Assembly (NCBI GenBank): GCA_030648135.1
Contig: JAUSIF010000034.1
Location: 1-43,382 of the forward strand
Length of the DNA: 43,382 nt
Direction: 5' to 3'
Source of the DNA: Xanthobacteraceae bacterium
Lineage (GTDB): Bacteria; Pseudomonadota; Alphaproteobacteria; Rhizobiales; Xanthobacteraceae
Shown here in pieces: positions 1,120-33,133 of this stretch. The notes beneath the pieces were generated by a model. It was given only the letters and a program-made list of their open reading frames with translations, had not been told where the DNA came from and ran no database searches. Position numbers and translations under genes: made by a program. The stretch's first letter is position 1. Every line of letters starts with the position of its first letter.

Positions 1120-2251
1120 AGGAAAGCCCAACCGGGCAGCCGTCGATGGTGCCGGCCGGCAGCGTGATCTGGGGCAGACCGCTCAGTCCCGCGATCGAGG
1201 TGAGCCGCATGACGCGGCTGCGAAAGGAGTCGAGCGCTTCGGTGGACGCATCGATGAGCGGCGCGATCGAGGGCGCGGTCGGCAAGGCGAGGATCGTGCC
1301 CGGCGCGGCCATCTCGCGCACCTGCTCGCGCGCGCGCATTTGTTCACGCCGCGCCGTCTCGGCCTCGCGCTCCGATACCTTGGCGGCGTATTCCATCCGC
1401 TCCTTGATGCCGGGACCGAGCCGCGGCCGCTGGCGCGTGATGAACTCGCCATAGATGCTCCAGATTTCTCTGCCCTGAATGACCCGGAAGCATTCGCGCC
1501 AGGGGTCGAGCCCTTGGGGCGCGATGCGCGCATGCTCCGGCTTCGGCAAATGATCGGCCGCATCCGCGAGAAAGGCCTGCAGCAAGGCTGCGACCTCGGA
1601 ATCGGCCTCGGCCAAGGCATCGTCCAACAGGATCATGCGACTGATCGGCGCGGCGCGGCGGTCGCCCTCGAGCAGCACTTGGCCAATGCTGCGAAAGACG
1701 CCCGGCCCGCTTGCGAACCATCCGGCCACGTCGAAGGAAGGCGCCATCGGCATTGCGCCCGAAAGATCGACCCGGCCGTGGGTCGGCCGGATGCCATAGA
1801 GCCCGCACAAGGCCGCCGGCACGCGCACCGATCCGCCGGTGTCGCTGCCGAGCGCGAAATCGCAGGCGCCCGAAGCCGTGGCTGACGCCGATCCGCTCGA
1901 AGAGCCGCCGGGCAGCCGTCCGGGCGCGCGCGGATTGAGCGGCGTGCCGTAATGGGCATTGGCGCCGGTCACGCTGAAGAAGAATTCGTCGCACACGGTC
2001 TTGCCGATGACGGTGGCGCCGGCATCGAGGATTTTCTGGACCGCGCGGGCATTGGCCGCCGCCGGCGGATGCGCCAGAAGCCACTCGGGATTGCCGCCGC
2101 CGGTGCGGGCGCCGGCGATGTCGTACATATCCTTGACCGCGGCGGTGAGACCGGCAAGCGGCCCGCTCGCGGCGCCCTTAAGCGGGCCCACGAGATCGTG
2201 CGGCACGAAAGCCGCCCGCGGCCGGCGCGATTTTGCGGCCACAGAATTCAC
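1019..2251 (-). CDS. amidase-signature family amidase (GatA-like)
   Basis: Motifs LAGLTAAVKDMYDIAG, GGSSSGSASA and GSDTGGSVRVPAA match the amidase signature. Start placed at the GTG at 2251-2249, which overlaps the TGA of the upstream deacetylase gene (GTGA coupling). The longer track ORF to 2440 would run through that gene. Confidence 0.85.
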   Translation of the reverse strand: MNSVAAKSRRPRAAFVPHDLVGPLKGAASGPLAGLTAAVKDMYDIAGARTGGGNPEWLLAHPPAAANARAVQKILDAGATVIGKTVCDEFFFSVTGANAHYGTPLNPRAPGRLPGGSSSGSASATASGACDFALGSDTGGSVRVPAALCGLYGIRPTHGRVDLSGAMPMAPSFDVAGWFASGPGVFRSIGQVLLEGDRRAAPISRMILLDDALAEADSEVAALLQAFLADAADHLPKPEHARIAPQGLDPWRECFRVIQGREIWSIYGEFITRQRPRLGPGIKERMEYAAKVSEREAETARREQMRAREQVREMAAPGTILALPTAPSIAPLIDASTEALDSFRSRVMRLTSIAGLSGLPQITLPAGTIDGCPVGLSFIAWSGGDEALLDLAFGLAKHGGIERQGDRPHR

Positions 2252-3129
2252 GGCCGTCTCCGCTGCGCCAGATACCAGTCGAGGATGCGGGCGCCGTCCC
2301 AGGCCACCACCCCGTCCCGGCTCAGGATTTCCTCGAACGTGCGCCGCACATGCGCGATCCGGTGCGGCACTCCCGAAAGATAGGGATGGCAGGCGATGGC
2401 CATGATTTTCGCGCGCTCGGCGGATTCCTCGTACAGACATTCGAAATGGTCGAGCGAGCGCCGGTACATCATGTCCGATGGCTGGTGCTGCAGCGCCATC
2501 AACACGATGTCGTGCAGCTCGAAATTATAGGGCAGCGCCACGATCGGCTTGGTCTTGGTGCGCAAGGTTACCGGCTCGTCGTCGAGCACCCAGTCGCCGA
2601 TATATTCGACCCCGGCCTCGGCGAGATAATCCAGGGTATCGAAAGTCTGGGTGAGGCCCGGGCCGAACCAGCCGCGCGGCCGCTTGCCGCAGAATTTTTC
2701 GATCACGTCCATGCTCTTCGCGATCACGGCGCGCTGGTCGTCGAGCTTGTGCATGGGGATCTGCTCGTAACCGTGCGCATTGAGTTCCCAGCCGTTCTCG
2801 ACGCAGGCCGCTACCACCTGCGGATAGGTCTCGCAGACCTTGGCATTGAGCGTCACGGTCGGCGCGGCGCCCACTTGTTCGAGCATTTTCTTGAGCCGCC
2901 AGAAGCCGACCCGCATGCCGTATTCGTGCCAGCTCCAGTTCGGATGGTCGGGCAGCATCGGTTGGCCCTGGGGCGGGGAAATCACCATGCGCGCCATCGG
3001 CCGCGAAATGTCCCAGTCCTCGAGCGCCAACACCGGCCAGACCACCAGCCGCACGCCTTTGGGAAAGCGCAATGGCGGCCGTTGAGTGATGGGAGAGAAA
3101 TCGAGGCGTTCGCGCGGATGCATGATCAT
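2248..3129 (-). CDS. polysaccharide deacetylase family protein (paralogue 1)
   Basis: Roughly half of aligned positions are identical by eye to the next gene (PRER.D.S.I..RPPL, WHEYGMRVG.WR, GKRP.GW.GPGLTQT, YIGDWV.DDEP, HPY.SG.PHRI). Start taken at MIMHPRE (3129), leaving a 37-nt gap to the upstream paralogue. Confidence 0.8.
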   Translation of the reverse strand: MIMHPRERLDFSPITQRPPLRFPKGVRLVVWPVLALEDWDISRPMARMVISPPQGQPMLPDHPNWSWHEYGMRVGFWRLKKMLEQVGAAPTVTLNAKVCETYPQVVAACVENGWELNAHGYEQIPMHKLDDQRAVIAKSMDVIEKFCGKRPRGWFGPGLTQTFDTLDYLAEAGVEYIGDWVLDDEPVTLRTKTKPIVALPYNFELHDIVLMALQHQPSDMMYRRSLDHFECLYEESAERAKIMAIACHPYLSGVPHRIAHVRRTFEEILSRDGVVAWDGARILDWYLAQRRRP

Positions 3130-20265: not shown

Positions 20266-21648
20266 ATGGAAAACCAGGTTTCACGCAGGAACTTTCTGAA
20301 CCGGCTGGGCGTCACGGTGGGCGCTGCCGCTGCCGCGACCGCGGTGCCGGCCACCTATTTCGCCGGACCGCGGCCAGCGCATGCGGCTATCAAGGTCAAG
20401 GGAAACATCCCAGACAAGCCGTTCAAGACCGGCCACATCACGTTCCTGACCGGCCCCGCCAATCTTCTGGGCGAGCCCGGCCGGAAAGGGCATCTGCTGG
20501 CAGCCGAGGAGATCAACGCCGAAGGCGGGTTCCTTGGCAAGCGGAAGATCGAAACCATTGTCGCCGACGAGGCCGCAGGTACCGACGCCAACGTCAAGGA
20601 GCTTCGCCGCATGAAGCTCTCCGAGAAGATCGACCTGTTCACCGGCGTCATCTCCAGCGGCAACACGCCGGCCCTCGGCCCGGTCGCCGAGGAACTCGGG
20701 GTGCTGACGATGTTCAACGACGGCTGCACCGACTTCCTGTTCGATAAGGCGGTGCCCAAGCCGAAATACGTCTTCCGGGTAACCAACATCCAGTCGGCGG
20801 ACGGCGTCACTTCAGCGGTCGGAGCGGCGAAGGCCTGGCCTCAAGCAAAGAAGGTCGGCTCCATCCAGCCGGACTACAGCTACGGCCGCAACGTGCATGA
20901 GCATTTCATGCTGGCGTTCCAGAAGCTGGTTCCCGGCGCTGCGTCCGTCTCCGAGGCGTGGCCGAAGCTCGGCACCACCGACTTCACCCCGCACATCACC
21001 AAGCTCTTGTCCGACAAGCCGGACGCCCTGATCTGCGGCCTGTGGGGCGGCGACTACGTGGCGTTCTACAAGCAGGCCCTGCGCTACGGCCTGTTCGATA
21101 AGATGAAAGTCGCCACCACGCTGGCCTTCGGCGGACAGCCGCACGCCATCGGTAAGGATCACCCCGAGGGCGTTCTGGCCGGTGCACACGCCAACTACTT
21201 CTTCACGCATCCGGCCAAAGGGCGCTGGCCGATCAACGACTCGTTCGTCGAGCGTTACTACAAGCGCTGGAACGAATATCCGAGCTTCGAGTCGGACGGC
21301 GCTTATGTGTCGCTTTACCTGCTCAAGGCCGCCATCGAGAAAGCCAACCTGCTTGTCGGCGGCTGGCCGGAGGACGACGTCATCATCAGCCTGCTTGAAG
21401 GCATGGGGATGGATACGCCGGCCGGTTATCTCTACATCCGGCCCGACAACCACCAGGGCTACAAGGACACCGTGATCGGGATGACCAAGAACGATCCCAA
21501 GTACGACTTCCCCATTTGGGATCCGAAGTCGATCATCACGATTCCGATCCGCGACATCACGGCGCCGCCCAATTGGCCGAAGCCCGGCACGTCGCATAAC
21601 GAGTCGACGGCAGCGGCCAACTGGCTCAAGACCACCTGGCTGACCTGA
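20266..21648 (+). CDS. Tat-signal ABC substrate-binding protein, LivK/Peripla_BP_6 type
   Basis: Canonical twin-arginine leader MENQVSRRNFLNRLGVTVGAAAAATAV..AHA. The body has LivK-family features (GFLGRKIETIVADEA, ISSGNTPALGPVAEE). Confidence 0.85.
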   Translation: MENQVSRRNFLNRLGVTVGAAAAATAVPATYFAGPRPAHAAIKVKGNIPDKPFKTGHITFLTGPANLLGEPGRKGHLLAAEEINAEGGFLGKRKIETIVADEAAGTDANVKELRRMKLSEKIDLFTGVISSGNTPALGPVAEELGVLTMFNDGCTDFLFDKAVPKPKYVFRVTNIQSADGVTSAVGAAKAWPQAKKVGSIQPDYSYGRNVHEHFMLAFQKLVPGAASVSEAWPKLGTTDFTPHITKLLSDKPDALICGLWGGDYVAFYKQALRYGLFDKMKVATTLAFGGQPHAIGKDHPEGVLAGAHANYFFTHPAKGRWPINDSFVERYYKRWNEYPSFESDGAYVSLYLLKAAIEKANLLVGGWPEDDVIISLLEGMGMDTPAGYLYIRPDNHQGYKDTVIGMTKNDPKYDFPIWDPKSIITIPIRDITAPPNWPKPGTSHNESTAAANWLKTTWLT

Positions 21649-21730: not shown

Positions 21731-24124
21731 ATGCATCGGGGCTTTGATGGGCCGGCCGTGCGGCGGATGCGTCACGGCCGCCTTGCTTCCCGCGATCCCA
21801 TCCGGCGCGGGGTCGTAAAGCGCGTCGCCGGTGTAGCCATGACTGCTGGCCTACTTGTCGCCGGCGGCCAAAGCGGCGCCGGTCATTCGGTCGGCCACTA
21901 TCCCTCCTATTACCCCGATGAGATCCGCATCGACGCCGTCGATCCGGCGGCGGCCGCCAAGGGTCTCGGCGACGAAACGCTGCATGCGTACGTCAGCGGG
22001 ACGCCGGCCTTCGCGGGGCCCGTGCCGGGGCACGTGAAGTCGGTGAGGTCGCTGGGATCATTTCTGGTCCTCTCCTTTAATACGGCCTCCGCACGCTTCG
22101 CGTCCGCCGACGGCCGTTGCACCGCCGCCCGCGGCATCCTGGCGGCGCTCAGCGAGGAAAAAGCGGCCGGCTTCATCTTCCACCCCTATCCAGTGACGCC
22201 TTATCACGCCGACTACCTGCATCATCTGGACCGCATCGATGCGGTCACGGCCGTCATCGGCGGTGGATCCACGCCGGCATCGTCCCTGAAGGTCGGCGCC
22301 AAAGGCGGGCTCGCGGAGGCGATGGTCAAGGCGCGATGGGGGCTCGCGGCCGATGGCGCGGATGCCGTCCTCGAGGAGGTGCCGGTGGACGAGCTGATTG
22401 CCGCCGCCGGCGTGCGGTTCGACGGTTGGTCGGGGCCGCCCTGGGCGAAGGAAGGTTGGTTCCAGGCGCATCAGCTGCTGGCACCGGGCCTCGACGCCGC
22501 ATCGCGGCGGGCAGTGGACGAAGACTATGCGCGCCTGATCCACGGCGAAACCGTCGGCCTGACGGAGCGGGTGAATCTGGAGCGGCGCCTGGTGGAGGCA
22601 CTTAACAATGGCTGCCAGCGCACGGTCGTGGGTTACGCGCCGAAGGAAGAAAACGTCAACGAGGCGTACCCGGCGGGAATCGAGAACGTCGCCTATGATT
22701 CACTCAGCGGCCTCAACAGCCCCGTCTTCTTCCGCACCGTGAAGCTCAAGGACTATCCGTGGAACGGCAAGCTGCACCTTGGGGTGCGCGAGCGCTCCGA
22801 CGCGGCCTGGAATCCGGTGGCCGGATTCACTGACGTGATGGGAAGGCTGATCTGGTCGGCCATCGGCGATCCCGCCATGATTCAGTTTCCGTTCAACGCG
22901 AGCTGGATGCCCAACCGCCTGCAATCGGTCGTCACCAAGGTGGAAGGTCAGTCCGGTGGCATCAGAGTGCCGGCCGACGCGGTCCGCCCGCAGTCGGGAA
23001 CGGGGGCGCTGCAACGCGTGGACGCCAGGACGTTTGCCTCGGCGAAGGTGACCTATGAAGTTCTTGCCTCGCCTTTCGAGGACGGCACCGAGATGGGGGT
23101 GGCGGACCTGATCTATCCGTTCGTTTTCGCCTATCGCTGGGGCGCCAAGACGGATACCGGCGACAATACCAGCGAGCCACGCCTGGCGGCGACGTTGGCC
23201 TCCATGCAGGAGCGCCTGGCCGGGCTCAAGTTCGTGCGCATGGAAAGGACGACCCATGCCATCGCCGAGGGCATGAATATTGTTCAGAAAACGCCCGTGC
23301 TGGAGGTCTATCTCAGGAACGTCCCCGGGGACGAGCAGCAGATGGCTGCCCTGGCGCCACCGTGGAGCACGGTGCCCTGGCATCTACTGGCGCTGATGGA
23401 AGAAGCGGTGATCCGGGGATATGCGGCCTTTTCGGAGGAAGAATCCAAGAGGCGGCGGGTCCCTTGGCTGGATCTCGTTCGCGATCCGGCGCTCAGAGCG
23501 AAATTGCAGGACCTGATCGTGCAGTTCGAGCGGGAGCGCTATCGCCCCGAGACGCTGAAAGACCTCGTCACCGCCGACGAGGCGCAGGCGCGCTGGCGGT
23601 CGCTCGGAGCCTTCGCCGAAAAGAACGGCCATTTCCTGGTCGCCAACGGCCCCTATCGGCTGAAGGAATGGACGCCCGACTCGGTCGTGCTGCAGGCCGT
23701 CCGCGAAGCCACTTATCCGTTGGGATTCGGCACTTTCGACCGCTTCGTCAACCCGCCGAGGGCGGTAATCGAAGCGGTGACGCAGGACTCCGGCGAGATC
23801 GCGGTGCGCGCCAGCGCTGAAATGATTTTGAAGATGGGGCGCAAATACCAGGCTGTGAAGGAACCGCTCTTGCGAAAGACAATGCGGGGGACCCTTGGGC
23901 TGCTCGTCGTTTCCCGCTATCTCCTGATCGGTCCCGACGGCACGGTTCTCAACGTCGACAAGATGCAGTGGAGGGAGGACGGGCGCTTCACAATCAATCT
24001 TCCGGAGCGCCTGCCGCCGGGCCCTTACACGATAATCCTAGCCATTTTCCTCGACGGAAATTCCATGTTGCCGTCGGCCAAGATGTTGCGCTTCCGCGTC
24101 GGCGGGGCGGCTTCTCCGGGCTAG
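21731..24124 (+). CDS. large exported protein of unassigned family (full-length paralogue), with family-5 solute-binding-protein-like motifs
   Basis: 797-aa ORF with GAAGGAAG 9 nt upstream of the ATG. Arg-rich N-terminus with RRGVVK plus a hydrophobic stretch. The N-half is paralogous to 27750-28901 and the C-half to the C-terminus of 29262-31967. Motifs KVTYEVLASPFEDGTEMGVADLIY and ANGPYRLKEWTPDSVVL recall SBP_bac_5 proteins. Confidence 0.8.
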   Translation: MHRGFDGPAVRRMRHGRLASRDPIRRGVVKRVAGVAMTAGLLVAGGQSGAGHSVGHYPSYYPDEIRIDAVDPAAAAKGLGDETLHAYVSGTPAFAGPVPGHVKSVRSLGSFLVLSFNTASARFASADGRCTAARGILAALSEEKAAGFIFHPYPVTPYHADYLHHLDRIDAVTAVIGGGSTPASSLKVGAKGGLAEAMVKARWGLAADGADAVLEEVPVDELIAAAGVRFDGWSGPPWAKEGWFQAHQLLAPGLDAASRRAVDEDYARLIHGETVGLTERVNLERRLVEALNNGCQRTVVGYAPKEENVNEAYPAGIENVAYDSLSGLNSPVFFRTVKLKDYPWNGKLHLGVRERSDAAWNPVAGFTDVMGRLIWSAIGDPAMIQFPFNASWMPNRLQSVVTKVEGQSGGIRVPADAVRPQSGTGALQRVDARTFASAKVTYEVLASPFEDGTEMGVADLIYPFVFAYRWGAKTDTGDNTSEPRLAATLASMQERLAGLKFVRMERTTHAIAEGMNIVQKTPVLEVYLRNVPGDEQQMAALAPPWSTVPWHLLALMEEAVIRGYAAFSEEESKRRRVPWLDLVRDPALRAKLQDLIVQFERERYRPETLKDLVTADEAQARWRSLGAFAEKNGHFLVANGPYRLKEWTPDSVVLQAVREATYPLGFGTFDRFVNPPRAVIEAVTQDSGEIAVRASAEMILKMGRKYQAVKEPLLRKTMRGTLGLLVVSRYLLIGPDGTVLNVDKMQWREDGRFTINLPERLPPGPYTIILAIFLDGNSMLPSAKMLRFRVGGAASPG

Positions 24125-24253
24125 TTGGAACATGCTGTCGGCGGCGGCAAAGCATGTGAACTCGCCGCTCATACCTGGGGTGTCCGCGCCGGGCCGTCAG
24201 CTTCTTGCAAGGCAAACCGTGGCGTCCTAGCCTTAACAATCGGCGGGGGGAAA

Positions 24254-25129
24254 ATGGATATCCTAATCATTCAAATCCTGAATTCCATTTTCTACGCCTG
24301 CATCCTGTTCCTCATTGCCGCCGGCCTCAGCCTGATTTACGGGGTCATGCGGATCATCAACCTGGCGCATGGCAGCCTCTATGCGCTAGGCGCCTACGTC
24401 ACGGCCTGGGCCATCGGCACCTTTGCCGCCGGCGCCCCGCTCTGGGTGTCGTTCCTGCTTCTGCCGGCGGGAGCTGTGGTCGTGGCCGCGGTCGGCGCCG
24501 CCATCGAGCCGACGCTGTTGCGGCCGCTTTACAATCGGCCGGAGGAATATCAACTCCTAATCACCTTCGCCCTGCTGCTGATCCTCGAGGACGCGATGCA
24601 CTTCCTGTTCGGGGGTACGCCGCTCACGGCGGGCGCGGTCATAGACAGCATGGGCACCATGCCAATTATGAACCTGCGATATCCCGTCTATAACCTCCTG
24701 GTCATCGCTATCGGCATCGCGGCCGCCGTCTTCCTCTGGGCCTTCATCTACCGCACCAAGTTCGGGGTCATCCTCAGGGCCACGTCGCAGAATATGCGCA
24801 TGGCCTCGGCGCTTGGCTTGAACGTCAAGCGGGTATACGTGCAGGCATTCGCCCTTGGCTGCTTCATGGCCGGCCTCGGAGGCGCGGTTGTCGTACCTGC
24901 TCAGGCCGCCGTGCTCGGCATGGGTATCGAGGCGCTCATTTTGGCATTTGTCGTCGTCGTCATCGGCGGGCTCGGCAGCCTCGAGGGAGCATTGATCGGC
25001 GCGCTGATCGTCAGCTTTGTGCGCACGGCCGGCATCCAGTTCTTTCCCGAAATCGAACTCGCGGTGCTCTACCTGATTGCGGCCGTCGTCCTGCTGGTAA
25101 GGCCGACCGGCTTATCCGGGAGGGCGTGA
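24254..25129 (+). CDS. LivH-like ABC permease
   Basis: MDILIIQILNSIFYACILFLIAAGLSLIYGVMRIINLAHGSLYALGAY is a LivH-type N-terminus. ATG at 24254 follows GGGGGGAAA. The track ORF from 24125 is an upstream extension. Confidence 0.9.
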   Translation: MDILIIQILNSIFYACILFLIAAGLSLIYGVMRIINLAHGSLYALGAYVTAWAIGTFAAGAPLWVSFLLLPAGAVVVAAVGAAIEPTLLRPLYNRPEEYQLLITFALLLILEDAMHFLFGGTPLTAGAVIDSMGTMPIMNLRYPVYNLLVIAIGIAAAVFLWAFIYRTKFGVILRATSQNMRMASALGLNVKRVYVQAFALGCFMAGLGGAVVVPAQAAVLGMGIEALILAFVVVVIGGLGSLEGALIGALIVSFVRTAGIQFFPEIELAVLYLIAAVVLLVRPTGLSGRA

Positions 25130-26133
25130 CGATGCAGAACGACGCCTCCCGCACCGGACCCTCGATGCTGTTGATCCTCGCCTGCGTGATACCGATTCTC
25201 GTTGTGCTCGTGGCGCTGCCGAAATTCGTCGATACGTATCAGATACAGTTGCTCACCTACGGACTGATTTATGCCATCGCGGGGCTCGGTTTCAATTTAT
25301 TGCTCGGCTATACGGGACTGCTTTCCTTCGGCCATTCCGCCTATTTTGGCCTTGGCGCCTATTCCGCGGCCTTCATGGCCAAGTATTTCGGCGTCGGCTC
25401 CATGGAGATCTACATCCTGGGCGGGCTCCTCATCACCGGCCTCGTTAGCGCGGCGTTCGGCTACATCTGTGTCCGCCACACCCGTATTTTCTTCGGCATC
25501 CTGACGCTTGCGTTGTCGCAGGTGTTGTGGACGCTGGCTTACAAATTCTTCTGGGTAACCGGCGGCACCGATGGCCTTCGCGTGCCCTTCGCCAATTTGA
25601 CGCTGCTTGGCGGGTTGATCGACTTCAAAGGCCGCGACACCTATCAGGCGTTCACGCAAAGTTATTATTATTACGTGCTGTTCCTGTTTTGCATTTGCAC
25701 GGTTTTCATGTGGGTGATCGTACATTCGCCCTTCGGCAAGGCGCTACAGGCGATTCGCGATAACGAGACGCGGGCGCAGTTCCTGGGCGTGCGGATCAGG
25801 CACTACCGCTGGTTCGCGTTTCTGCTGTCCGGCAGCTTCACGGGCCTCGCTGGCATCCTGTGGGTGCCGCTGAACGGCCTGGTCACGCCCGATATCCTGT
25901 ATTGGCCGTTCTCCGGCGAGATCGTGTTCATGACCGTACTCGGCGGCTTCCGTACGTTCACCGGACCGATCGTCGGCGCCGTGGTGTTCAATTATCTCAA
26001 GGTCTACGCCGTCGCCAGTACCGCGTACTGGCAATTGCTGCTCGGTGTCGTACTCGTGGTGCTGGTGTTGGCATTACCGACGGGCATCGTCGGAACGCTG
26101 TCTCGCCTCTTTGGCAAGTTCAGGAAGAGGTGA
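25126..26133 (+). CDS. LivM-like ABC permease
   Basis: GTG at 25126 overlaps the previous TGA (GTGA); alternative ATG at 25132. Motifs NLLLGYTGLLSFGHSAYFGLGAY and ALQAIRDNETRAQFLG. Confidence 0.9.
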   Translation: MTMQNDASRTGPSMLLILACVIPILVVLVALPKFVDTYQIQLLTYGLIYAIAGLGFNLLLGYTGLLSFGHSAYFGLGAYSAAFMAKYFGVGSMEIYILGGLLITGLVSAAFGYICVRHTRIFFGILTLALSQVLWTLAYKFFWVTGGTDGLRVPFANLTLLGGLIDFKGRDTYQAFTQSYYYYVLFLFCICTVFMWVIVHSPFGKALQAIRDNETRAQFLGVRIRHYRWFAFLLSGSFTGLAGILWVPLNGLVTPDILYWPFSGEIVFMTVLGGFRTFTGPIVGAVVFNYLKVYAVASTAYWQLLLGVVLVVLVLALPTGIVGTLSRLFGKFRKR

Positions 26134-26137
26134 TGAC

Positions 26138-26911
26138 ATGAATCTCCTCGAAACTATCAATCTCAAGAAATATTTCGGCGAGACGCATGCGGTCGACAAT
26201 GTCAGCCTGACCATCGCCGAGCGCGAGTTCGTCTCACTGGTAGGCCCAAATGGCGCCGGCAAGACCACGCTCGTCAACGTGGTCAGCGCCTTATTTCGTT
26301 CGGACTCGGGGAAAATCCTGTTCAAGGGCGATGACATCACCCATACCTCCGTGACCGAGCGCGTCAAAGCGGGAATTGCACGCAGCTTTCAGATCGTGAA
26401 CCTGTTCGACGATCTCACCGCATTCGACAACGTGACACTTGCGATCTTTTCCCGTCAGGGTAAGACCGGCAATCCGGCGACGCTTGCCCACCTGGATCAC
26501 GAGGTGAGCGCCGAAGCGGATGCCGTGCTCGCCCAATTCAACCTTACGAGCAAACGCAAAGAGCACGCGCGCGATCTCGCCCAAGGCGAGCGGAAGCTGC
26601 TCGACGTGGCGCTCGCCTACGCGCTGAAACCGAAGCTCCTATTCCTCGATGAACCGACGAGTGGCGTGAGCACCCGCGACAAGGGCCAGATCATGGATAC
26701 GATTGCCTCGGTCGTGCGGGGCGAAGGCATCACCGCCGTCATCATCGAGCACGACATGGATGTCGTGTTCAAATATTCCGATCGGATCGTGGTTATGCAA
26801 CAGGGCGCAATTCTCGCCCAGGGTACGCCCGATGCGATCAGGAATAACGATCAGGTCGCGATGATCCTGCTCGGCACTTCCGGACCGGACGCTTTCACAC
26901 GAAAGGATTGA
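26138..26911 (+). CDS. LivG-like ABC ATPase
   Basis: ATG at 26138 after GAGGTGATGAC. Walker A GPNGAGKTT, signature-like AQGERKLLDVA, Walker B LLFLDEP. Confidence 0.9.
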   Translation: MNLLETINLKKYFGETHAVDNVSLTIAEREFVSLVGPNGAGKTTLVNVVSALFRSDSGKILFKGDDITHTSVTERVKAGIARSFQIVNLFDDLTAFDNVTLAIFSRQGKTGNPATLAHLDHEVSAEADAVLAQFNLTSKRKEHARDLAQGERKLLDVALAYALKPKLLFLDEPTSGVSTRDKGQIMDTIASVVRGEGITAVIIEHDMDVVFKYSDRIVVMQQGAILAQGTPDAIRNNDQVAMILLGTSGPDAFTRKD

Positions 26912-27636
26912 TCGACGTGCTCGAGATCAAGGCGATCGATACCTACCGCGGCCCCGCCCATATCCTGTACGGCTTGTCCTTGCGCGTCGAAAAACAGGAG
27001 GTGGTGTGTCTGGTCGGACGCAACGGCGCCGGCAAGACCACCACGATCGAAAGCATCATGGGATTTCTGCCGGTTAGGACCGGGCAAATCCTCTTCGACG
27101 ACGAGGATTTGACGAATCTTCCGCCGCACGAACGGGCCAAACGCGGCATCGGCTACTCGCCGGACGACTGCGGCGTCTTTCCCGAACTTTCTGTGGGCGA
27201 GAATTTGATGATCAGCCGCTGGCTGGGGGACGAGGTCGCCCGCCGACGCGACGGCAAGGAGCGTGCAAACCCGGAAGCGCAGGCCTTTGACATTTTTCCC
27301 GAAGTCAAAACGCTGTTGCAGCGCCAGGGGCTGCACCTGAGCGGCGGCCAGCGCAAGATGGTGGCGATCGCGCGCGCCATGATGCTGTCGCCCACGCTGC
27401 TCTTGCTCGATGAGGCGTTCGAGGGGCTGGCTCCGGTCGTGGTCAACCGCTTCATCGAAGCGGTGATGAAGATCAAGGCCATGGGCGTCTCCATCCTGAT
27501 GGCGGAGTCGCATCTGGCCGCGGCGACGCGGATCGGCGACCGGCTCTACGCCATCGATCGCGGTGAGATCATCTTCCATGGGCCGCCGAAGGAAGCGCTT
27601 GCCAATGAGAAGGTTGTGAAGGCATTGCGGGGGTGA
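26908..27636 (+). CDS. LivF-like ABC ATPase
   Basis: TTG at 26908 overlaps the previous TGA (alternative GTG at 26917). Walker A GRNGAGKTT, signature LSGGQRKMVAI, Walker B LLLLDEA. Confidence 0.9.
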   Translation: MIDVLEIKAIDTYRGPAHILYGLSLRVEKQEVVCLVGRNGAGKTTTIESIMGFLPVRTGQILFDDEDLTNLPPHERAKRGIGYSPDDCGVFPELSVGENLMISRWLGDEVARRRDGKERANPEAQAFDIFPEVKTLLQRQGLHLSGGQRKMVAIARAMMLSPTLLLLDEAFEGLAPVVVNRFIEAVMKIKAMGVSILMAESHLAAATRIGDRLYAIDRGEIIFHGPPKEALANEKVVKALRG

Positions 27637-27749: not shown

Positions 27750-28901
27750 ATGAATCGTCGCAGCGCGTTCATCATGTTCGCGATGGCAGTTACCATCGCC
27801 ACCGCGGCCAGGAGCGGCCACGAGCTGCCGGTCTATCCCTCCTATTATCCTCACGAGATTGAAATTACGACTGTCGCGCCAAAACGCGCGGAAGGCCTAT
27901 TGCTCGCGGGCAAGATCCAGGCCTATGTCGGCGGCGCGCTACGTTTCGCCGGCGCACCGCCGGCTTCGATCGGCAACGTCGAGTCGCTCGGCTCCTTCGT
28001 GATCGTCCGCGTCAACCCGTCCTCGCCCCTGGCCAAGGACGGCCGGTCCGCCTGCACCGTCGCAGAACTCGTCATCCAAGATCTAGCCGGGAAGGGCGGG
28101 GGTCTGATCCTTCATCCCTATCCGGTCACGCCCTTTCACGGCGATTATCTGTACCACGTCGATCTCGCCGAGGCCGCGAAGGCGCGCATTCTGGGCGGCC
28201 GTGCCGATTCATCAGGTTCTGACACCCAATACTTGAAATTGAAGGCCGGCAGCGAATTCGCGCAAACCATCGTGCGTCCCGAATGGCGCACCCAGGGTTC
28301 GGACTGGGATGTGGAAGTGGCAGAAGTCGGCGCCGCGGAGCTCGTTGCCAGCGCGAGCGTTGCGATGAACGGTTGGCTTGGTCCCGCTTGGATAAGAACA
28401 GGGTGGTTTCAAGCTTATCTTTTTCTGAACGAGCACGCCAGCGACGAAAATCTGAAACAACGCATCGAAACCCTATTCCAGCGCTTGCAGACGTCTGCCT
28501 ATGACGATGCAGTCGAACGCATCAATCTGGAGCGGTCGCTCGTTACGGCGCTGGCTAGTGGCTGTCACGCACTCGTCGCCGGCTACACCGTGAAACGCGA
28601 GTACTTCAATGTCGACTCCTCTGCCGGGATCGAAAACATCGCTTACGATTCGCTTAATGGTCTAAATTCGCCGATGTTCATCCGCACCGTGAAGCTGAAA
28701 GATTTTCCCTGGAACGGCTCGCTTGCGCTCGGGATCGGCGCACCGCCAGCAGCCGTTTGGAATCCGGTTGCAGGCTTTACCGACGAATACGGACGACTGA
28801 TGTGGTCCGCGGTGGGCGACCCGGCTTTGATTCCATCGCCCTACGAGTCGGCCTGGATGCTCAATCGCATCTCCGACGTTCAGTCAAGCGCTAAGCAATG
28901 A
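27750..28901 (+). CDS. exported protein, N-half-only paralogue of the 797-aa protein
   Basis: 383 aa. Leader MNRRSAFIMFAMAVTIATAA. Colinear with residues ~50-430 of 21731-24124 (YPSYYP.EI.I, LGSF.V, HPYPVTP.H.DYL.H, IEN.AYDSL.GLNSP.F.RTVKLKD.PWNG, WNPVAGFTD..GRL.WSA.GDPA). It stops where the full-length copy continues. Confidence 0.8.
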   Translation: MNRRSAFIMFAMAVTIATAARSGHELPVYPSYYPHEIEITTVAPKRAEGLLLAGKIQAYVGGALRFAGAPPASIGNVESLGSFVIVRVNPSSPLAKDGRSACTVAELVIQDLAGKGGGLILHPYPVTPFHGDYLYHVDLAEAAKARILGGRADSSGSDTQYLKLKAGSEFAQTIVRPEWRTQGSDWDVEVAEVGAAELVASASVAMNGWLGPAWIRTGWFQAYLFLNEHASDENLKQRIETLFQRLQTSAYDDAVERINLERSLVTALASGCHALVAGYTVKREYFNVDSSAGIENIAYDSLNGLNSPMFIRTVKLKDFPWNGSLALGIGAPPAAVWNPVAGFTDEYGRLMWSAVGDPALIPSPYESAWMLNRISDVQSSAKQ

Positions 28902-29302
28902 ACCAAATGAGGCGTGTCGTTGGCGTGATCCCTGCTTCATTCGCTGGATGTTTTCTGGCGCTTTCTCTGCTCTTGGCACCGTGCCTAACCGTCACCTGCG
29001 CCAAGGCCGAAGAAGTCACGTTCGATCTGCGGGTCGAGCGTGGGCGCGTGCCCGTCAACATGCGGCTGATCCGCGTCGAGCAAGGCGACGTCGTCAAGCT
29101 GCGGTGGAGCACCGATCAGACAACGATCCTGCATCTCCATGGCTACGACATCGAAATGAAGATCGAGCCCGGTGCCATGGTGGAGATGAGTTTCACCGCG
29201 CGCGCCACCGGAAGGTTTCCAGTTTCCGCCCACAAGCCCAAGCAGGGCAGCGGTCACACTCATGATCCGCCTCTGGTCCATGTCGAAGTTCATCCGCGTT
29301 AG
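28898..29302 (+). CDS. small exported cupredoxin-like protein lacking the type-1 Cu cysteine
   Basis: ATGA overlap with the previous gene. Hydrophobic leader. IRVEQGDVVKLRWSTDQTTILHLHGYDIEMKIEPGAMVEMSFTARATGRFPVSAH follows the cupredoxin strand pattern, but the position normally holding C..H..M reads SAHKPKQGSGHTHD. Confidence 0.65.
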   Translation: MNQMRRVVGVIPASFAGCFLALSLLLAPCLTVTCAKAEEVTFDLRVERGRVPVNMRLIRVEQGDVVKLRWSTDQTTILHLHGYDIEMKIEPGAMVEMSFTARATGRFPVSAHKPKQGSGHTHDPPLVHVEVHPR

Positions 29303-31967
29303 CGCGATCGCGTGGTGCCGGTCAGCCGGGACGATTCTTCCGCTCGTAGTGGCTGCATCGGCGGCTTGCGCACTTGCGACCCCCGCGAGCGCCCACGGCT
29401 TCGGCCAGCGCTACGATCTTCCTCTGCCACTCTCGCTCTATCTTCTTGGGGCGGCGGCCGTTGTCGTGTTTTCGTTCGTCATCGTCGGCCTCTTCGTTCG
29501 CCAAGCAACGCACGCCCGCGAATATCCGCGTTTCAATCTGCTTGCTCATTCTGCCGGCAGATTGATCGCGCATCCCGGTCTCGTTCTTGTTCTCAAGCTT
29601 GTCTCGCTCGTTTTGTTCGTCGTCACCGTGACGGCGGGTTTCCTCGGCGACCAGAACCCGTACCGAAACATCGCGCCGACCATGGTGTGGATCATCGTAT
29701 GGGTCGGCCTCGCGTACGCTTCGGCTTTCGTGGGCGACATCTGGGCGCTGATCAATCCATGGCGAACGATCTTCGAAGGAGCGGAGTCGCTTTACGGACG
29801 GATCGCCGGTGGGCGTGATCTTTCTCGTCGCCTGCACTATCCCGAAGCGCTCGGTGTCTGGCTCGCAGTCGTCCTGCTGCTGGCCTTCTCCTGGTTCGAG
29901 CTCGTCTATCCCACTCCCGCGATTCCAGCGCAGATCGCGTGTCTGGCAGTCGGTTATTCCATCCTCACCTGGACCGGCATGGCGGTGTTCGGCCGCGAGA
30001 CCTGGCTGCGGCACGGTGAGGTCTTTTCCGTCGTCTTCGGCACCTTCGCCCGTTTTGCGCCGACGGAGGCGCGCGCCGACCTGCGGCGGCAGGAATTGAT
30101 TCTGCGGCCCTTCGGCGCCGGGCTCCTCGATAGCCGGCCCGCTTCGCCGTCGATGGCGGCCTTCGTGCTCCTGCTGCTTTCCACTGTCCTTTATGACGGC
30201 CTACTGAACACTCCGGAATGGTCGAACCTGGAGAACGTTGTCGGCGCCCTCCTGCGCGATCCCGGTGAACTCGGATTGATCGCGATCAGGAGCATCGGTC
30301 TCGTCGCGTTCTGGCTCTTGTTCCTCGGCGCCTATATGGCGGTGAGCGCGATCATGAGCGCGGCGGAGGCAGGACGCCGCTCGCCGCTCGAGATCGCGCA
30401 GAGCTTCGCCTTCACCTTGATTCCAATCACCATCGGCTATCACCTGGCGCATTATCTCGTGTTCCTGCTGATCCAGGGGCAGTACATCGTTCCCCTGATT
30501 TCCGATCCTTTCGGCTACGGCTGGAATCTCTTCGGTACCGCCGGATATCGGGTCGACATCGCAATCGTCGGTGCCCGCTTTGCCTGGTACGCGGCGGTTA
30601 CCGCGATCGTCGTTGGGCATATCGCCGCCGTCTATCTCGCCCATGTGAAGGCGATGCAGGTATTCGAATCTCGCCAAGCGGCGCTGCGATCCCAGGTTCC
30701 GCTCACTGCGCTGATGGTGGTCTATACCTTCGTCAGCCTCTCAATTCTCGCCGAGCCGATCGTCGAACGCCGCGCGCCCGCGCAGCCGACCGCTATCGCA
30801 GCCGCCGAGATCGCTATTCCCGCCGACGCGGTGCTGCCCGAGCCGGGGAGCGGTCGTCTGCAGCCGATCGGGCCGGGCAAGCTCGCCCGGGTGAAATTGA
30901 CCTACCGCGTGCTCGGTTCCGCCTTCCATGACGGCACCCGGACGAATGTCGCCGATCTGCTCTACGCCTATATGTTCGCCTATCGCTGGGGCGTCCGAAG
31001 CGAGGGAAGCGATGCTCACTACGACCCCTTCATCGACTCTGCGACCGCTACCATGCGCCGGCAGCTTGCTGGATTACGCGCCGCGGGGAGTGACGCGGTG
31101 TCCAAGTCCTTCCGGATCGGAGACGTCAATTTCCTTCGCGAGCTATTCACAGTCGAAGTCTATGCGACGGTCGTGCCCGAGGACCCGGAGCGAGACGCGG
31201 TCGTGGCGCCACCCTGGAGCACGCTTCCCTGGCATCTGATCGTCTTGATGGAGGAAGCCGTCGATCGGGGTTGGGTCGCGTTTTCGAAGGACGAAGCGGC
31301 GCGCCGCGGCGTCGAATGGCTCGATCTTGTCCGTTCCGAGCGAATGAACGTACGACTGGCGTCGCTGATCGAGACGTTCGAACGTGAAGGCTATCGTCCC
31401 ACCGCTCTTCAGTCCCTGGTGAGCGCCGAGGAGGCTCGCAAGCGTTGGGCGGCGCTTGCTACCTTCTACAAGGCTCGCGGCCACTTCCTGGTCACCAACG
31501 GGCCGTACCGGTTGAAGCGCTGGTCGAAGGAAAGCGTCACGCTCGAGGCATTCAGGGACCTGACCTATCCGCTCGGCGTGGGCTCCTATGACGCCTACGC
31601 GATACCGCGCAGAGCCTACGTCACCAAGATCGAGCGGGAAAAAAACCGCATCAGGCTTTTCGCCGACATCGAGACGATCATGAAATTTCAACGGAGCTAC
31701 CGGATTGACCGGGGACCGATGCAATCCATCTCGCGCGATATCCTGAAACGGGCAGCACCGGAATGCCGGTATGTGGTGATGGACGATGAAGGCCGCGTCG
31801 TGCTGGCGGGTACCGCTCCTCTGGCTGATGATTTGACTTTTCAAGCGGACCTGAACGGCAAACTCGCGGCTGGCCGTTACATCATGGCTGCCTTGATCGC
31901 CGTCAACGGCAATGTCATGAACGCGGACATCCACCGTATCCCCTTGCTAATTTCGTCCAATCCATGA
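29262..31967 (+). CDS. fusion protein: signal peptide + ~10-11-helix membrane domain + C-half paralogue of the 797-aa protein
   Basis: 901 aa (alternative ATG at 29280); overlaps the previous gene by 23-41 nt. Predicted cleavage ..ATPASA|HGFGQRYDLPLPL. Polytopic to about residue 500. From IAIPADAVLPEPGSG (about nt 30810) it is colinear with residues ~410-797 of 21731-24124 (K.TY.VL.S.F.DGT...VADL.Y...FAYRWG, APPWST.PWHL..LMEEAV.RG, GHFLV.NGPYRLK.W). Confidence 0.8.
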   Translation: MIRLWSMSKFIRVSAIAWCRSAGTILPLVVAASAACALATPASAHGFGQRYDLPLPLSLYLLGAAAVVVFSFVIVGLFVRQATHAREYPRFNLLAHSAGRLIAHPGLVLVLKLVSLVLFVVTVTAGFLGDQNPYRNIAPTMVWIIVWVGLAYASAFVGDIWALINPWRTIFEGAESLYGRIAGGRDLSRRLHYPEALGVWLAVVLLLAFSWFELVYPTPAIPAQIACLAVGYSILTWTGMAVFGRETWLRHGEVFSVVFGTFARFAPTEARADLRRQELILRPFGAGLLDSRPASPSMAAFVLLLLSTVLYDGLLNTPEWSNLENVVGALLRDPGELGLIAIRSIGLVAFWLLFLGAYMAVSAIMSAAEAGRRSPLEIAQSFAFTLIPITIGYHLAHYLVFLLIQGQYIVPLISDPFGYGWNLFGTAGYRVDIAIVGARFAWYAAVTAIVVGHIAAVYLAHVKAMQVFESRQAALRSQVPLTALMVVYTFVSLSILAEPIVERRAPAQPTAIAAAEIAIPADAVLPEPGSGRLQPIGPGKLARVKLTYRVLGSAFHDGTRTNVADLLYAYMFAYRWGVRSEGSDAHYDPFIDSATATMRRQLAGLRAAGSDAVSKSFRIGDVNFLRELFTVEVYATVVPEDPERDAVVAPPWSTLPWHLIVLMEEAVDRGWVAFSKDEAARRGVEWLDLVRSERMNVRLASLIETFEREGYRPTALQSLVSAEEARKRWAALATFYKARGHFLVTNGPYRLKRWSKESVTLEAFRDLTYPLGVGSYDAYAIPRRAYVTKIEREKNRIRLFADIETIMKFQRSYRIDRGPMQSISRDILKRAAPECRYVVMDDEGRVVLAGTAPLADDLTFQADLNGKLAAGRYIMAALIAVNGNVMNADIHRIPLLISSNP

Positions 31968-32429: not shown

Positions 32430-32798
32430 AGGTCCGCTTCGCGTCAGAACCAGTAATCAGATAGCACCGGGCTAATCGTCCGCTTTGCCGCCCATAGCAG
32501 AACTGGACTTCGGCAGATCGAGTTCTCGTGCACTCATTTTGGATATGGCGTCACTTGCAGAAGCGATGCAATTTCCAACTTTGGGACCGCAGCATGCGTC
32601 CAAGCTCCTGATTAATTACAATTTTAAAACCCGTACTAATTCCACATAGTCCAGAACTTTGGAGAAAAGAAGGCCTGGGAGACAACGAGCGGGCGTTGTA
32701 CACCTCGGCGCAGTCCACAGCCATGTCCGGAGAATCTCGCCACAACTCGAGATCTTCGCCGCAATGACCGGTCGGAGAATACGTGGGCTGAGAGATGC

Positions 32799-32872
32799 TG
32801 GCTGGGGGACTAGGATTCGAACCTAGATTAACGGAGTCAGAGTCCGCTGTTCTACCATTGAACTATCCCCCA
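32799..32872 (-). tRNA. tRNA-Gln (anticodon CUG)
   Basis: The minus strand reads TGGGGGATAGTTCAATGGTAGAACAGCGGACTCTGACTCCGTTAATCTAGGTTCGAATCCTAGTCCCCCAGCCA. It has a 7-bp acceptor stem (TGGGGGA/TCCCCCA), anticodon loop CTCTGAC, T loop GGTTCGAATCC and encoded CCA. Confidence 0.9.
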
Positions 32873-33133
32873 TCACGGCGATCGGGTCGCGGCGCGGGCG
32901 CCGAAGCGCGAACAGCGCGGAGTGAAGCCAGATCAGTTTCCTATCCGAGGCACCCCGGTGAGGCAAGTTTCGGCCCGGCCGGAAAATTCGGCGGCGCCGG
33001 TACCGGATGACCTGCATTTTTCGTCATATTGCCATGCAGCAGACACATTGCTGTCATGCGGTAAGTCTAAGTAGTAACGCTGGAATACCAGCCTATATTG
33101 GGCTCGGAATTAAGCCAAAGATTGGGGATCACT

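Follow-up and report, generated by a model that had tools for sequence, protein, structure and literature searches.

Bacterial copper import and the delivery of copper to periplasmic and membrane enzymes are poorly mapped, with few routes being known, namely, CopCD/YcnJ, CcoA, the chalkophores and PCuAC/Sco. In CopC/CopD and YcnI/YcnJ, an extracytoplasmic copper-binding beta-sandwich is paired with a polytopic membrane protein carrying helix histidines, and a histidine is found at the mature N-terminus, such an amino-terminal histidine being the basis of histidine-brace copper chemistry in proteins of the CopC, YcnI, LPMO and PmoB type. Papers on YcnI/YcnJ include PMC8424229 and PMC12362106. 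Here, a gene pair of similar layout is described in a stretch of 43,382 nucleotides (hereafter, the window), corresponding to positions 1 to 43,382 of contig JAUSIF010000034.1 from a Xanthobacteraceae bacterium, the genome of which (GCA_030648135.1) is a metagenome bin, 69% complete. The first gene encodes cup, a small secreted cupredoxin-like protein, and the second a 901-residue protein whose N-terminal membrane domain is termed memb. It is tentatively proposed, as an account that may quite possibly hold, that cup and memb constitute a two-part, periplasm-facing copper relay or uptake module. In what follows, the conservation of cup residues was counted on 117 relatives (33-69% identity to the window protein) and that of memb residues on an alignment of 65 sequences (44-85% identity), comprising the window protein and 64 homologues cut from fetched genomes. 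Models were obtained with AlphaFold2 (AF2), with confidence given as the predicted local distance difference test (pLDDT) and predicted template-modelling (pTM) scores. The features of the pair, including the transmembrane (TM) helices that matter here, are as follows:

28898..29302, + strand: cup gene, 134-residue secreted cupredoxin-like protein (open reading frame [ORF], translation, AF2 model)
29129..29143, + strand: LHLHG motif of cup (H79 in 117/117, H81 in 113/117)
29231..29272, + strand: H112 of cup and His-bearing loop 113-125 (HKPKQGSGHTHDPP); H112 in 110/117, loop with at least one His in 106/117
29262..31967, + strand: gene (ORF) for the 901-residue protein, with N-terminal membrane domain memb (residues 1 to ~505) and C-terminal periplasmic domain
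29262..29393, + strand: predicted signal peptide of the 901-residue protein, ending P-A-S-A (A at -3 in 60/65, A at -1 in 63/65)
29394..29432, + strand: predicted mature N-terminus HGFGQRYDLPLPL (H45, R50, Y51, P54 and P56 invariant)
29394..30776, + strand: ten-helix membrane domain, residues 45-505 (AF2 pLDDT 84.5, pTM 0.84)
29898..29900, + strand: E213, periplasmic end of TM4 (65/65; codon checked)
30195..30197, + strand: D312, periplasm-facing (65/65; codon checked)
30435..30455, + strand: GYHLAHY in TM8, with Y393, H394, H397 and Y398 (H394 in 62/65, H397 in 65/65)
30504..30506, + strand: D415, periplasm-facing (65/65; codon checked)
30615..30644, + strand: GHIAAVYLAH in TM9, with H453 and H461 (H453 in 65/65; H461 in 57/65, replaced by D in 8)

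The pair resembles CopC/CopD and YcnI/YcnJ in that a small extracytoplasmic beta-sandwich is encoded together with a polytopic membrane partner carrying helix histidines. There is, however, no homology, with neither cup nor memb matching Pfam CopC, CopD or DUF1775. Moreover, the N-terminal histidine is found on the soluble protein in CopC and YcnI, whereas here it is, given the predicted cleavage, found on the membrane protein, and the soluble partner here is a cupredoxin with an HxH...H set. Assignment of memb as a CopD protein was separately considered and rejected, given that no PF05425 match was obtained in a Pfam scan or in a search of its own genome and that hhalign comparison with four CopD proteins returned a probability of 0.14%. 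A further likeness is to FtrABCD iron uptake, where a report available in part describes FtrB as a Cys-less, Cu(II)-binding periplasmic cupredoxin that is a ferrous oxidase in vitro (PMC11966278) and another, likewise available in part, describes FtrD, encoded with it, as a membrane polyferredoxin (PMC7415376). By contrast, no FTR1 permease or P19 gene is found beside cup and memb in the window or in related loci, the ligands proposed for FtrB are Asp and His near the C-terminus rather than the HxH...H of cup, and memb contains no iron-sulphur (Fe-S) motifs. Assignment of cup as FtrB was also rejected, given the lack of an FTR1 or P19 neighbour and of any BLASTP similarity to the FtrB-like Cupredoxin_1 protein of the same genome, such that only the fold is shared. 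That 117-residue protein (E 1.9e-30) is encoded immediately upstream of an FTR1 permease in an FtrB-FtrC-like arrangement (L174; contig C369, positions 1720-2909, minus strand). The FTR1 profile search also gave EfeUOB-type loci in the five best cases and in L175, where FTR1 is fused to a cupredoxin domain and followed by a DyP peroxidase. The nearest described systems by function are CopC/CopD, YcnI/YcnJ and FtrB/FtrD, and the nearest by descent are cupredoxin/multicopper oxidase domains for cup and the NapH-like polyferredoxin group for memb. The pair would appear to be a periplasmic metal-binding protein and a membrane partner built from unrelated parts.

That the small protein is cupredoxin-like had been suggested from its strand pattern in the original prediction, a view borne out by modelling. 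Residues 1-38 of cup form a leader and residues 39-134 a beta-sandwich, modelled by AF2 as an eight-strand cupredoxin sandwich (pLDDT 86.9) with strands spanning residues 39 to 132, i.e., the Greek-key beta-sandwich of ~100 residues that defines the cupredoxin superfamily. Comparison of the model with the PDB using Foldseek gave 260 matches at E<=1e-3, the top ones being CuA domains of nitrous oxide reductase and ba3 oxidase. Comparison using VIA gave nitrosocyanin (Z 12.1; root-mean-square deviation [rmsd] 1.8; 86 residues aligned), the metal-binding domain of Streptococcus pneumoniae CopA (Z 11.5), the S. pneumoniae copper chaperone CupA (Z 11.4), NosZ (Z 11.4), a copper-bound Cupredoxin_1 protein (Z 11.3) and FtrB (Z 11.0; rmsd 2.0; 85 residues aligned), with the top matches differing by only ~1 Z unit and Z ranging from 10.4 to 12.1 across the 50 cupredoxin entries listed. 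No Pfam match was obtained for the window cup protein at E<=0.1; among its 117 relatives, 41 match Cupredoxin_1 (best 8e-7) and 36 match Cu-oxidase_2 weakly (E<=0.01). Cup relatives amount to 1466 proteins in 90% clusters and to 1884 representatives at 50% identity (E<=1e-3), some of which carry the JGI name 'FtsP/CotA-like multicopper oxidase with cupredoxin domain'.

The sequence strings singled out earlier, namely, LHLHG and the His loop of cup, together with A-S-A followed by H-G, GYHLAHY and GHIAAVYLAH in memb, were all found in place. The further claim that histidines replace the type-1 copper segment of cup was upheld in part. The mature domain is indeed Cys-free in 111 of the relatives and so offers neither a type-1 (blue) nor a CuA site. 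In a PDB profile search, however, H79 and H81 align with the HxH of a two-domain laccase and A111/H112 with the D/H of the laccase H-D-H, such that H79, H81 and H112 fall on the HxH...H trinuclear-cluster ligand positions of multicopper oxidases, with A111, a position that is variable and hydrophobic among relatives, at the position of the type-1 Cys. The site of cup is therefore not simply a His-substituted type-1 site. Nitrosocyanin, CuA domains and small laccases share the fold of cup, and it is with the HxH and H-x-H of laccases that the HxH and later His of cup align. Still, cup is not itself a multicopper oxidase, in which two or more cupredoxin domains supply four HxH motifs for the trinuclear cluster; it has just one domain, of 96 residues, and in it one HxH followed by one further His. 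As a single domain devoid of a Cys or Met ligand set, it would offer no type-1, red or CuA site, nor could it form a trinuclear cluster alone. Of the His-rich tail that had also been pointed out, H112 and the loop are conserved; H128, present in 10/117 and usually Tyr, and H132, present in 54/117, lack such conservation. The same conservation picture was seen in a wider set of 148 cup representatives.

Turning to the 901-residue protein, a histidine (H45, with the codon starting at position 29394) is present in all 65 memb sequences, most of which have A-x-A directly before it. Cleavage before H45 was assigned by the -3/-1 rule alone. Variovorax-type, actinobacterial and haloarchaeal homologues share the AHG start, and a histidine brace, in which copper is held by the N-terminal amine, its imidazole and a second His, is plausible in memb. 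The AF2 model presents a signal helix followed by ten membrane helices, and the sum of Lys and Arg residues in successive loops (1/4/1/5/0/8/1/2/1/0) fits a topology with both ends of memb in the periplasm (N-out, C-out). In such a topology, and with depths estimated from helix limits, the periplasmic face would hold H45, E213, D312, D415 and H394/H397, with H453 halfway through the membrane and H461 nearer the cytoplasm. The helix histidines of TM8 and TM9, previously described as conserved-looking, proved to be conserved, and the alignment of 117 cup and 65 memb relatives, offered at the outset as a check on the metal-handling idea, thus returned conserved histidines in both proteins. The conserved features of memb, the TM9 GHIAAVYLAH histidines included, persist in homologues of only 30-41% identity. 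The region originally delimited ends at 30770, corresponding to approximately residue 503 of the 901-residue ORF, at the end of the membrane domain.

No match for memb was found in Pfam or NCBIfam, nor did a PDB sequence profile search yield any. Foldseek gave no PDB match at E<=1e-3 (TM-score ~0.1), and comparison of TM1-5 with TM6-10 by hhalign gave a probability of 0.2% for an internal repeat. The best VIA matches, to helical bundles such as talin and Sla2 (Z 7.0), fall within the noise for helical models and were set aside. The same was done with the label 'Fenitrothion hydrolase family', which the ESM Atlas attaches to memb at 0.77-0.78, below the trust level, and for which no such membrane protein was found in the literature. 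All 120 stand-alone memb homologues listed are unnamed or 'hypothetical', and the names of cup and memb relatives offer nothing beyond 'hypothetical' or a generic COG label. No paper on the cup-memb pair was found in a literature search in which subscription journals lay outside the search.

The linkage of the two genes was considered by scanning one genome per species with a pattern built from a 16-sequence cup alignment. A cup relative was found in 332 species, with 80 loci being kept, and in 79 of these memb lies downstream of cup on the same strand, the remaining locus (L077) encoding a PCuAC-cup fusion without memb. In 69 of the 80, the pair is preceded by the gene for a soluble protein, the 'N-half' (see below), and accompanied by a whole Liv operon as far as contigs reach, and in 10 (L067-L070, L072-L074, L076, L078, L081) cup and memb stand without binding-protein halves or Liv genes. 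In three loci, the N-half-cup-memb string is broken by gaps of 0.9-5 kb (L040, 7354-8984; L055, 7351-12445; L023, 5902-8275), which may be insertions. In a plasmid collection, memb homologues occur in 66 records, from rhizobia, Sulfitobacter, mycobacteria, Pseudonocardia and haloarchaea, with cup being detected in 5 of these and adjoining memb in 5/5. The pair was also encountered in Variovorax (39% identity), Pseudonocardia, Mycobacterium dioxanotrophicus, M. chubuense and M. rufum, with a Bradyrhizobium orthologue of cup being found in L033/L034, and the distant pairs retain HxHG(Y)D in cup and AHG, AHY and GHxxxxxxxH in memb. The memb family is wider than the pair. A profile search detected relatives in 51 of 401 sampled Pseudomonadota genomes, i.e., about one in eight, and the family also occurs in actinobacteria and haloarchaea; 20 of the 51 loci were fetched with flanks, of which 9 encode Fe-S-less and 11 Fe-S-bearing relatives. 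Beside several stand-alone memb homologues, large secreted proteins with no clear family are encoded (L133:6480-7664; L136:3397-4980; L076:5680-7197), the last with a sub-threshold match to the SBP56 selenium-binding/methanethiol-oxidase family (E 1.5e-6; 27.7 bits vs. a cutoff of 34).

The connection of the pair with copper is indirect but repeated, coming from fusions and from neighbours. Among the 150 best cup representatives surveyed, two are fused to PCuAC (E ~1e-39), one to SCO1/SenC (5e-25) and one to cytochrome c (6e-14), and one further representative bears an N-terminal His/Asp run. In Sulfitobacter, a memb homologue is divergently adjacent to a PCuAC gene, and an SCO1/SenC gene lies beside a cytochrome-c-fused member of the Fe-S sister group of memb introduced below. 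PCuAC and Sco1/SenC have folds and ligands unlike those of cup and neither is encoded in the window, yet elsewhere they are fused to the cup domain or encoded next to memb, which implies that the pair takes part in the periplasmic copper traffic that these chaperones serve. A lipoprotein-type cup and memb come after sigC on two mycobacterial plasmids, from M. dioxanotrophicus and M. chubuense NBB4, 1-5 kb from genes encoding a copper membrane monooxygenase. A review, available in part, remarks on an unexplained SigC-like gene near mycobacterial copper monooxygenase genes (PMC8784404), and SigC is reported, in a source also available in part, to prevent copper starvation in M. tuberculosis (PMC7924339).

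Taken with the fold of cup, the conserved residues of both proteins, the charge-biased topology of memb and the linkage of the two genes, these associations are consistent with the following sequence of events. Cup would be exported and bind copper at a putative His-only site comprising H79, H81, H112 and a loop His. Because these residues lie where multicopper oxidases place interface ligands, the site would be exposed, such that a partner could complete or empty it. Cleavage of memb by signal peptidase after A-S-A would put His45 at, or close to, the start of the mature chain and just outside TM1, where it could form, together with H394/H397, E213, D312 and D415, a metal site on the periplasmic face of the ten-helix bundle. 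Were cup to dock at this face, its ion might pass to that site, and H453 in mid-membrane and H461 in the cytoplasmic half of TM9 would extend a His ladder letting it move inward. This ladder argues for a module that acquires copper or relays it to a target, and not for an electron carrier of the blue-copper kind; whether by transport or by relay, the metal handled would probably be copper. A more far-reaching proposal, doubtful when taken as a whole, is that the pair founds a class of copper uptake or insertion system that has yet to be described and bears no relation to CopCD, CcoA or P-type ATPases, in which copper would travel from cup to the N-terminal His of memb and on to the ladder H397, H453 and H461. 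Memb would, in this proposal, have evolved from NapH-like polyferredoxins through loss of the Fe-S domain, with the system providing a SigC-linked supply for mycobacterial copper membrane monooxygenases and capturing a copper chelate in the Xanthobacteraceae.

Examination of the surrounding region revealed the pair to lie in a single string of + strand genes, in the order LivK-like, 797-residue protein, LivH/M/G/F, 383-residue protein, cup and 901-residue protein, the parts not listed above being:

20266..21648, + strand: gene for a LivK-like binding protein (Pfam)
21731..24124, + strand: gene for an unsplit 797-residue secreted protein with no Pfam family (Pfam scan)
24125..27636, + strand: LivH, LivM, LivG and LivF genes (Pfam)
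27750..28901, + strand: gene for the 383-residue secreted 'N-half', paralogue of residues 50-400 of the 797-residue protein
30807..31967, + strand: C-terminal periplasmic domain of the 901-residue protein, paralogue of residues 418-779 of the 797-residue protein, resembling family-5 binding proteins

The ATG of cup overlaps the stop codon of the upstream 383-residue gene (ATGA), and the ORF of the 901-residue protein overlaps the 3' end of cup by 41 nucleotides, or by 23 nucleotides if the start is the ATG at residue 7, where the copy of this protein in the protein collection begins. The 383-residue protein shares 45% identity with residues 50-400 of the 797-residue protein, and residues 524-886 of the 901-residue protein share 41% identity with its residues 418-779. 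The parentage of both pieces points to a second copy of the 797-residue gene having been split, with cup and memb sitting at the break. The C-half of the 901-residue protein matches PDB entry 7fi3_A ('ABC-type dipeptide/oligopeptide transport system'; E 4e-6), as does the 797-residue paralogue (E 8.7e-14), and the Pfam SBP_bac_5 match of the C-terminal domain is sub-threshold (12.7 bits vs. a cutoff of 32.4). Residues 22-302 of 7fi3_A align to residues 359-658 of the 797-residue protein, and the fused C-half begins at about residue 69 of this chain, such that the first strands of the binding-protein-like fold are carried by the separate 383-residue protein. The two pieces of the split fold would accordingly need to be reassembled in the periplasm. 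With the module thus inserted in a split binding-protein-like gene beside a Liv-type ATP-binding cassette (ABC) importer, it may, in this lineage, act on a copper chelate or together with the importer.

Both soluble paralogues were said to present GH just after their leaders, and this is so. GHExx(V/I)YPS(Y/F)YP is found just past the leader in each (window positions 27750-27870 and 21731-21910), with the His being present in 62 of 62 N-half copies and in 23 of the 27 copies of the 797-residue type in which the motif was found. Lying six residues ahead of YPS(Y/F)YP, this His would, by the -3/-1 rule, be mature residue 1 or 2. As the same is predicted for memb, three proteins of one operon may start with His.

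Several observations weigh against the copper module. In the case of cup, designed Ig-like proteins match at the same E-value as do copper proteins in the PDB profile search, making that search weak evidence by itself. In the case of memb, AF2 confidence is low at residues 39-51 (pLDDT below 50), and in the actinobacterial homologues, going by their annotation, the His is preceded by only 5-10 residues and no signal peptide is present, such that it may not be the first residue; H394, moreover, is lost in the actinobacterial forms examined. As for genomic context, no copper gene is found near the pair in the window or in the 69 loci with the same operon, and the neighbours of the nine stand-alone pairs scanned are mixed and mostly non-copper, with no consistent theme. 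Among the 20 diverse Pseudomonadota loci fetched, the cup profile matches only one, ~3 kb away, and a copper chaperone neighbour was likewise seen in only one; the nine Fe-S-less relatives are nowhere adjoined by cup, which in one case lies 3 kb off. Six of these nine loci instead contain components of Liv-type ABC importers within ~3 kb, two contain xanthine-dehydrogenase-family genes and one a nicotinate phosphoribosyltransferase (NAPRTase) gene, and the Sulfitobacter and Neorhizobium memb loci repeat this ABC and nicotinate-type context. Three haloarchaeal memb homologues sit in contexts with no copper genes and no consistent theme. The notion of a metal-handling pair is thus sustained by the conserved histidines, by the PCuAC, SCO1/SenC and cytochrome c fusions and by the PCuAC, SigC and copper monooxygenase neighbours, but sits poorly with the finding that most memb relatives are cup-less and lie beside Liv-type ABC importers rather than copper genes. 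Lastly, H394, H397 and E213 are shared with a sister group bearing two [4Fe-4S] motifs; H394 and H397 are thus not specific to the memb branch, and such sharing suggests a redox ancestry.

Cup-less Fe-S-less relatives directly beside Liv-type ABC genes are found in L086, L088, L134, L137 and L139-L141, and some cup-less loci lie near xanthine-dehydrogenase-family or nicotinate-related genes (nicAB, 6-hydroxynicotinate reductase, NAPRTase). There are hints here that in cup-less lineages the memb family serves the uptake or catabolism of an N-heterocycle. Given these Liv-type and the NapG/NapH neighbourhoods considered next, the wider memb family is tied to ABC importers and redox modules, with the cupredoxin-linked branch being one part.

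The best surviving alternative, although unlikely, is that memb is a periplasm-facing metallo-redox protein derived from NapH-like polyferredoxins, with cup, or elsewhere cytochrome c, as electron partner, the two transforming a compound captured by the binding proteins and imported by the Liv-type ABC system, much as Cys-less FtrB works alongside polyferredoxin FtrD. This draws on the kinship of memb. The eleven Fe-S-bearing relatives (L142-L152; uncharacterized membrane proteins of 500-880 residues, e.g., L142:4440-5951 and L144:4998-6626) all match Pfam Fer4_5 and, weakly, NapH/MauN, and contain CxxCP and two 4Fe-4S motifs, the Cys-rich insertion falling exactly in the TM5-TM6 loop. When the memb and Fe-S groups were compared by hhalign, 423 columns were aligned (probability 99.9%, E 2e-32), covering TM2-TM10 and including the G..WxxxxPW helix end, TWLELG and YH(L)AH, which makes memb the Fe-S-less sister of this NapH-like polyferredoxin group. 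The sister proteins keep redox company, 5 of the 11 loci lying among NapG/NapH-like genes, two of these (L142, L144) with a NapA-like gene, and the L150 protein carrying three fused c-type cytochrome domains, with SCO1/SenC and Ccm genes next to its own. To this can be added the cup relative fused to cytochrome c, the match of the cup fold to FtrB, and the recurrence of Fe-S-less relatives by Liv-type ABC genes and molybdenum dehydrogenases.

What tells against such a redox role is what memb has lost and gained. In the window protein, as in all nine Fe-S-less relatives, none of which has any Pfam family, the CxxCP and two [4Fe-4S] motifs that define NapH/MauN are absent, with the W-C-A-I-C-P-W of the Fe-S group reading W-A-L-I-N-P-W (CxxCP being replaced by A-L-I-N-P) and the two-cluster ferredoxin insertion being reduced to a short hairpin. 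There is thus no evident cytoplasmic electron input. Memb instead adds a signal peptide and the N-terminal His motif, which the sister group lacks, and carries D312 and H453 where that group has His and Phe, respectively. When memb was set directly against NapH-like proteins in hhalign, the probability was only 0.09%. For its part, cup is devoid of the Cys on which fast electron transfer by cupredoxins depends, its Z-score with FtrB is tied with those of dozens of other cupredoxins, and it shows no BLASTP similarity to the FtrB-like protein of its own genome.

It is improbable that the same arrangement handles a metal other than copper, be it iron, nickel, zinc or cobalt, or a metal chelate, with the His sites then lacking any preference for copper. 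His/carboxylate-rich sites devoid of Cys or Met suit several divalent metals. The fused C-terminal domain resembles family-5 binding proteins, which include nickel- and metallophore-binding members. A DyP peroxidase gene follows one haloarchaeal memb homologue, a CbtA-family gene lies near the M. rufum pair, and a Cupredoxin_1 structure has been deposited with both Cu and Zn (4hcf, 4hcg). Nonetheless, all metal-specific partners fused to cup or encoded beside memb are of the copper type (PCuAC, SCO1/SenC and copper monooxygenases), the nearest folds of cup are copper proteins, and no Fur-, Nik- or Znu-type genes lie next to the pair in the loci examined. Finally, it is likewise improbable that no metal is involved and that memb has an accessory role, structural or regulatory, in anchoring the split binding protein by the ABC importer, its histidines serving proton relay, helix packing or ligand contacts and cup being a binding module. 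Memb does carry one half of a binding-protein-like fold, the other half of which is encoded a short way upstream, and it recurs beside Liv-type importers in three separate lineages. However, the pair occurs without binding-protein halves or Liv genes in 10 of the 80 loci and in actinobacteria, and the invariant His after A-x-A, the HxH...H of cup and the PCuAC/Sco fusions are hard to explain metal-free.

Cup and memb represent two uncharacterized, tightly linked families, each numbering thousands in metagenomes and neither having a Pfam or NCBIfam model that reaches threshold, with the membrane part having no solved relative. Should the pair indeed supply or relay copper, copper homeostasis in soil bacteria, Bradyrhizobium among them, would gain a new component, and the pair would be a candidate source of the metal of actinobacterial hydrocarbon monooxygenases. 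It would also provide an example of a redox membrane scaffold converted through loss of its Fe-S domain. Beyond the operon, ~0.8 kb downstream, a tRNA-Gln (CTG) gene is found on the minus strand (window positions 32799-32872), the 71-residue ORF listed at 32795-33010 being an opposite-strand reading of this gene.

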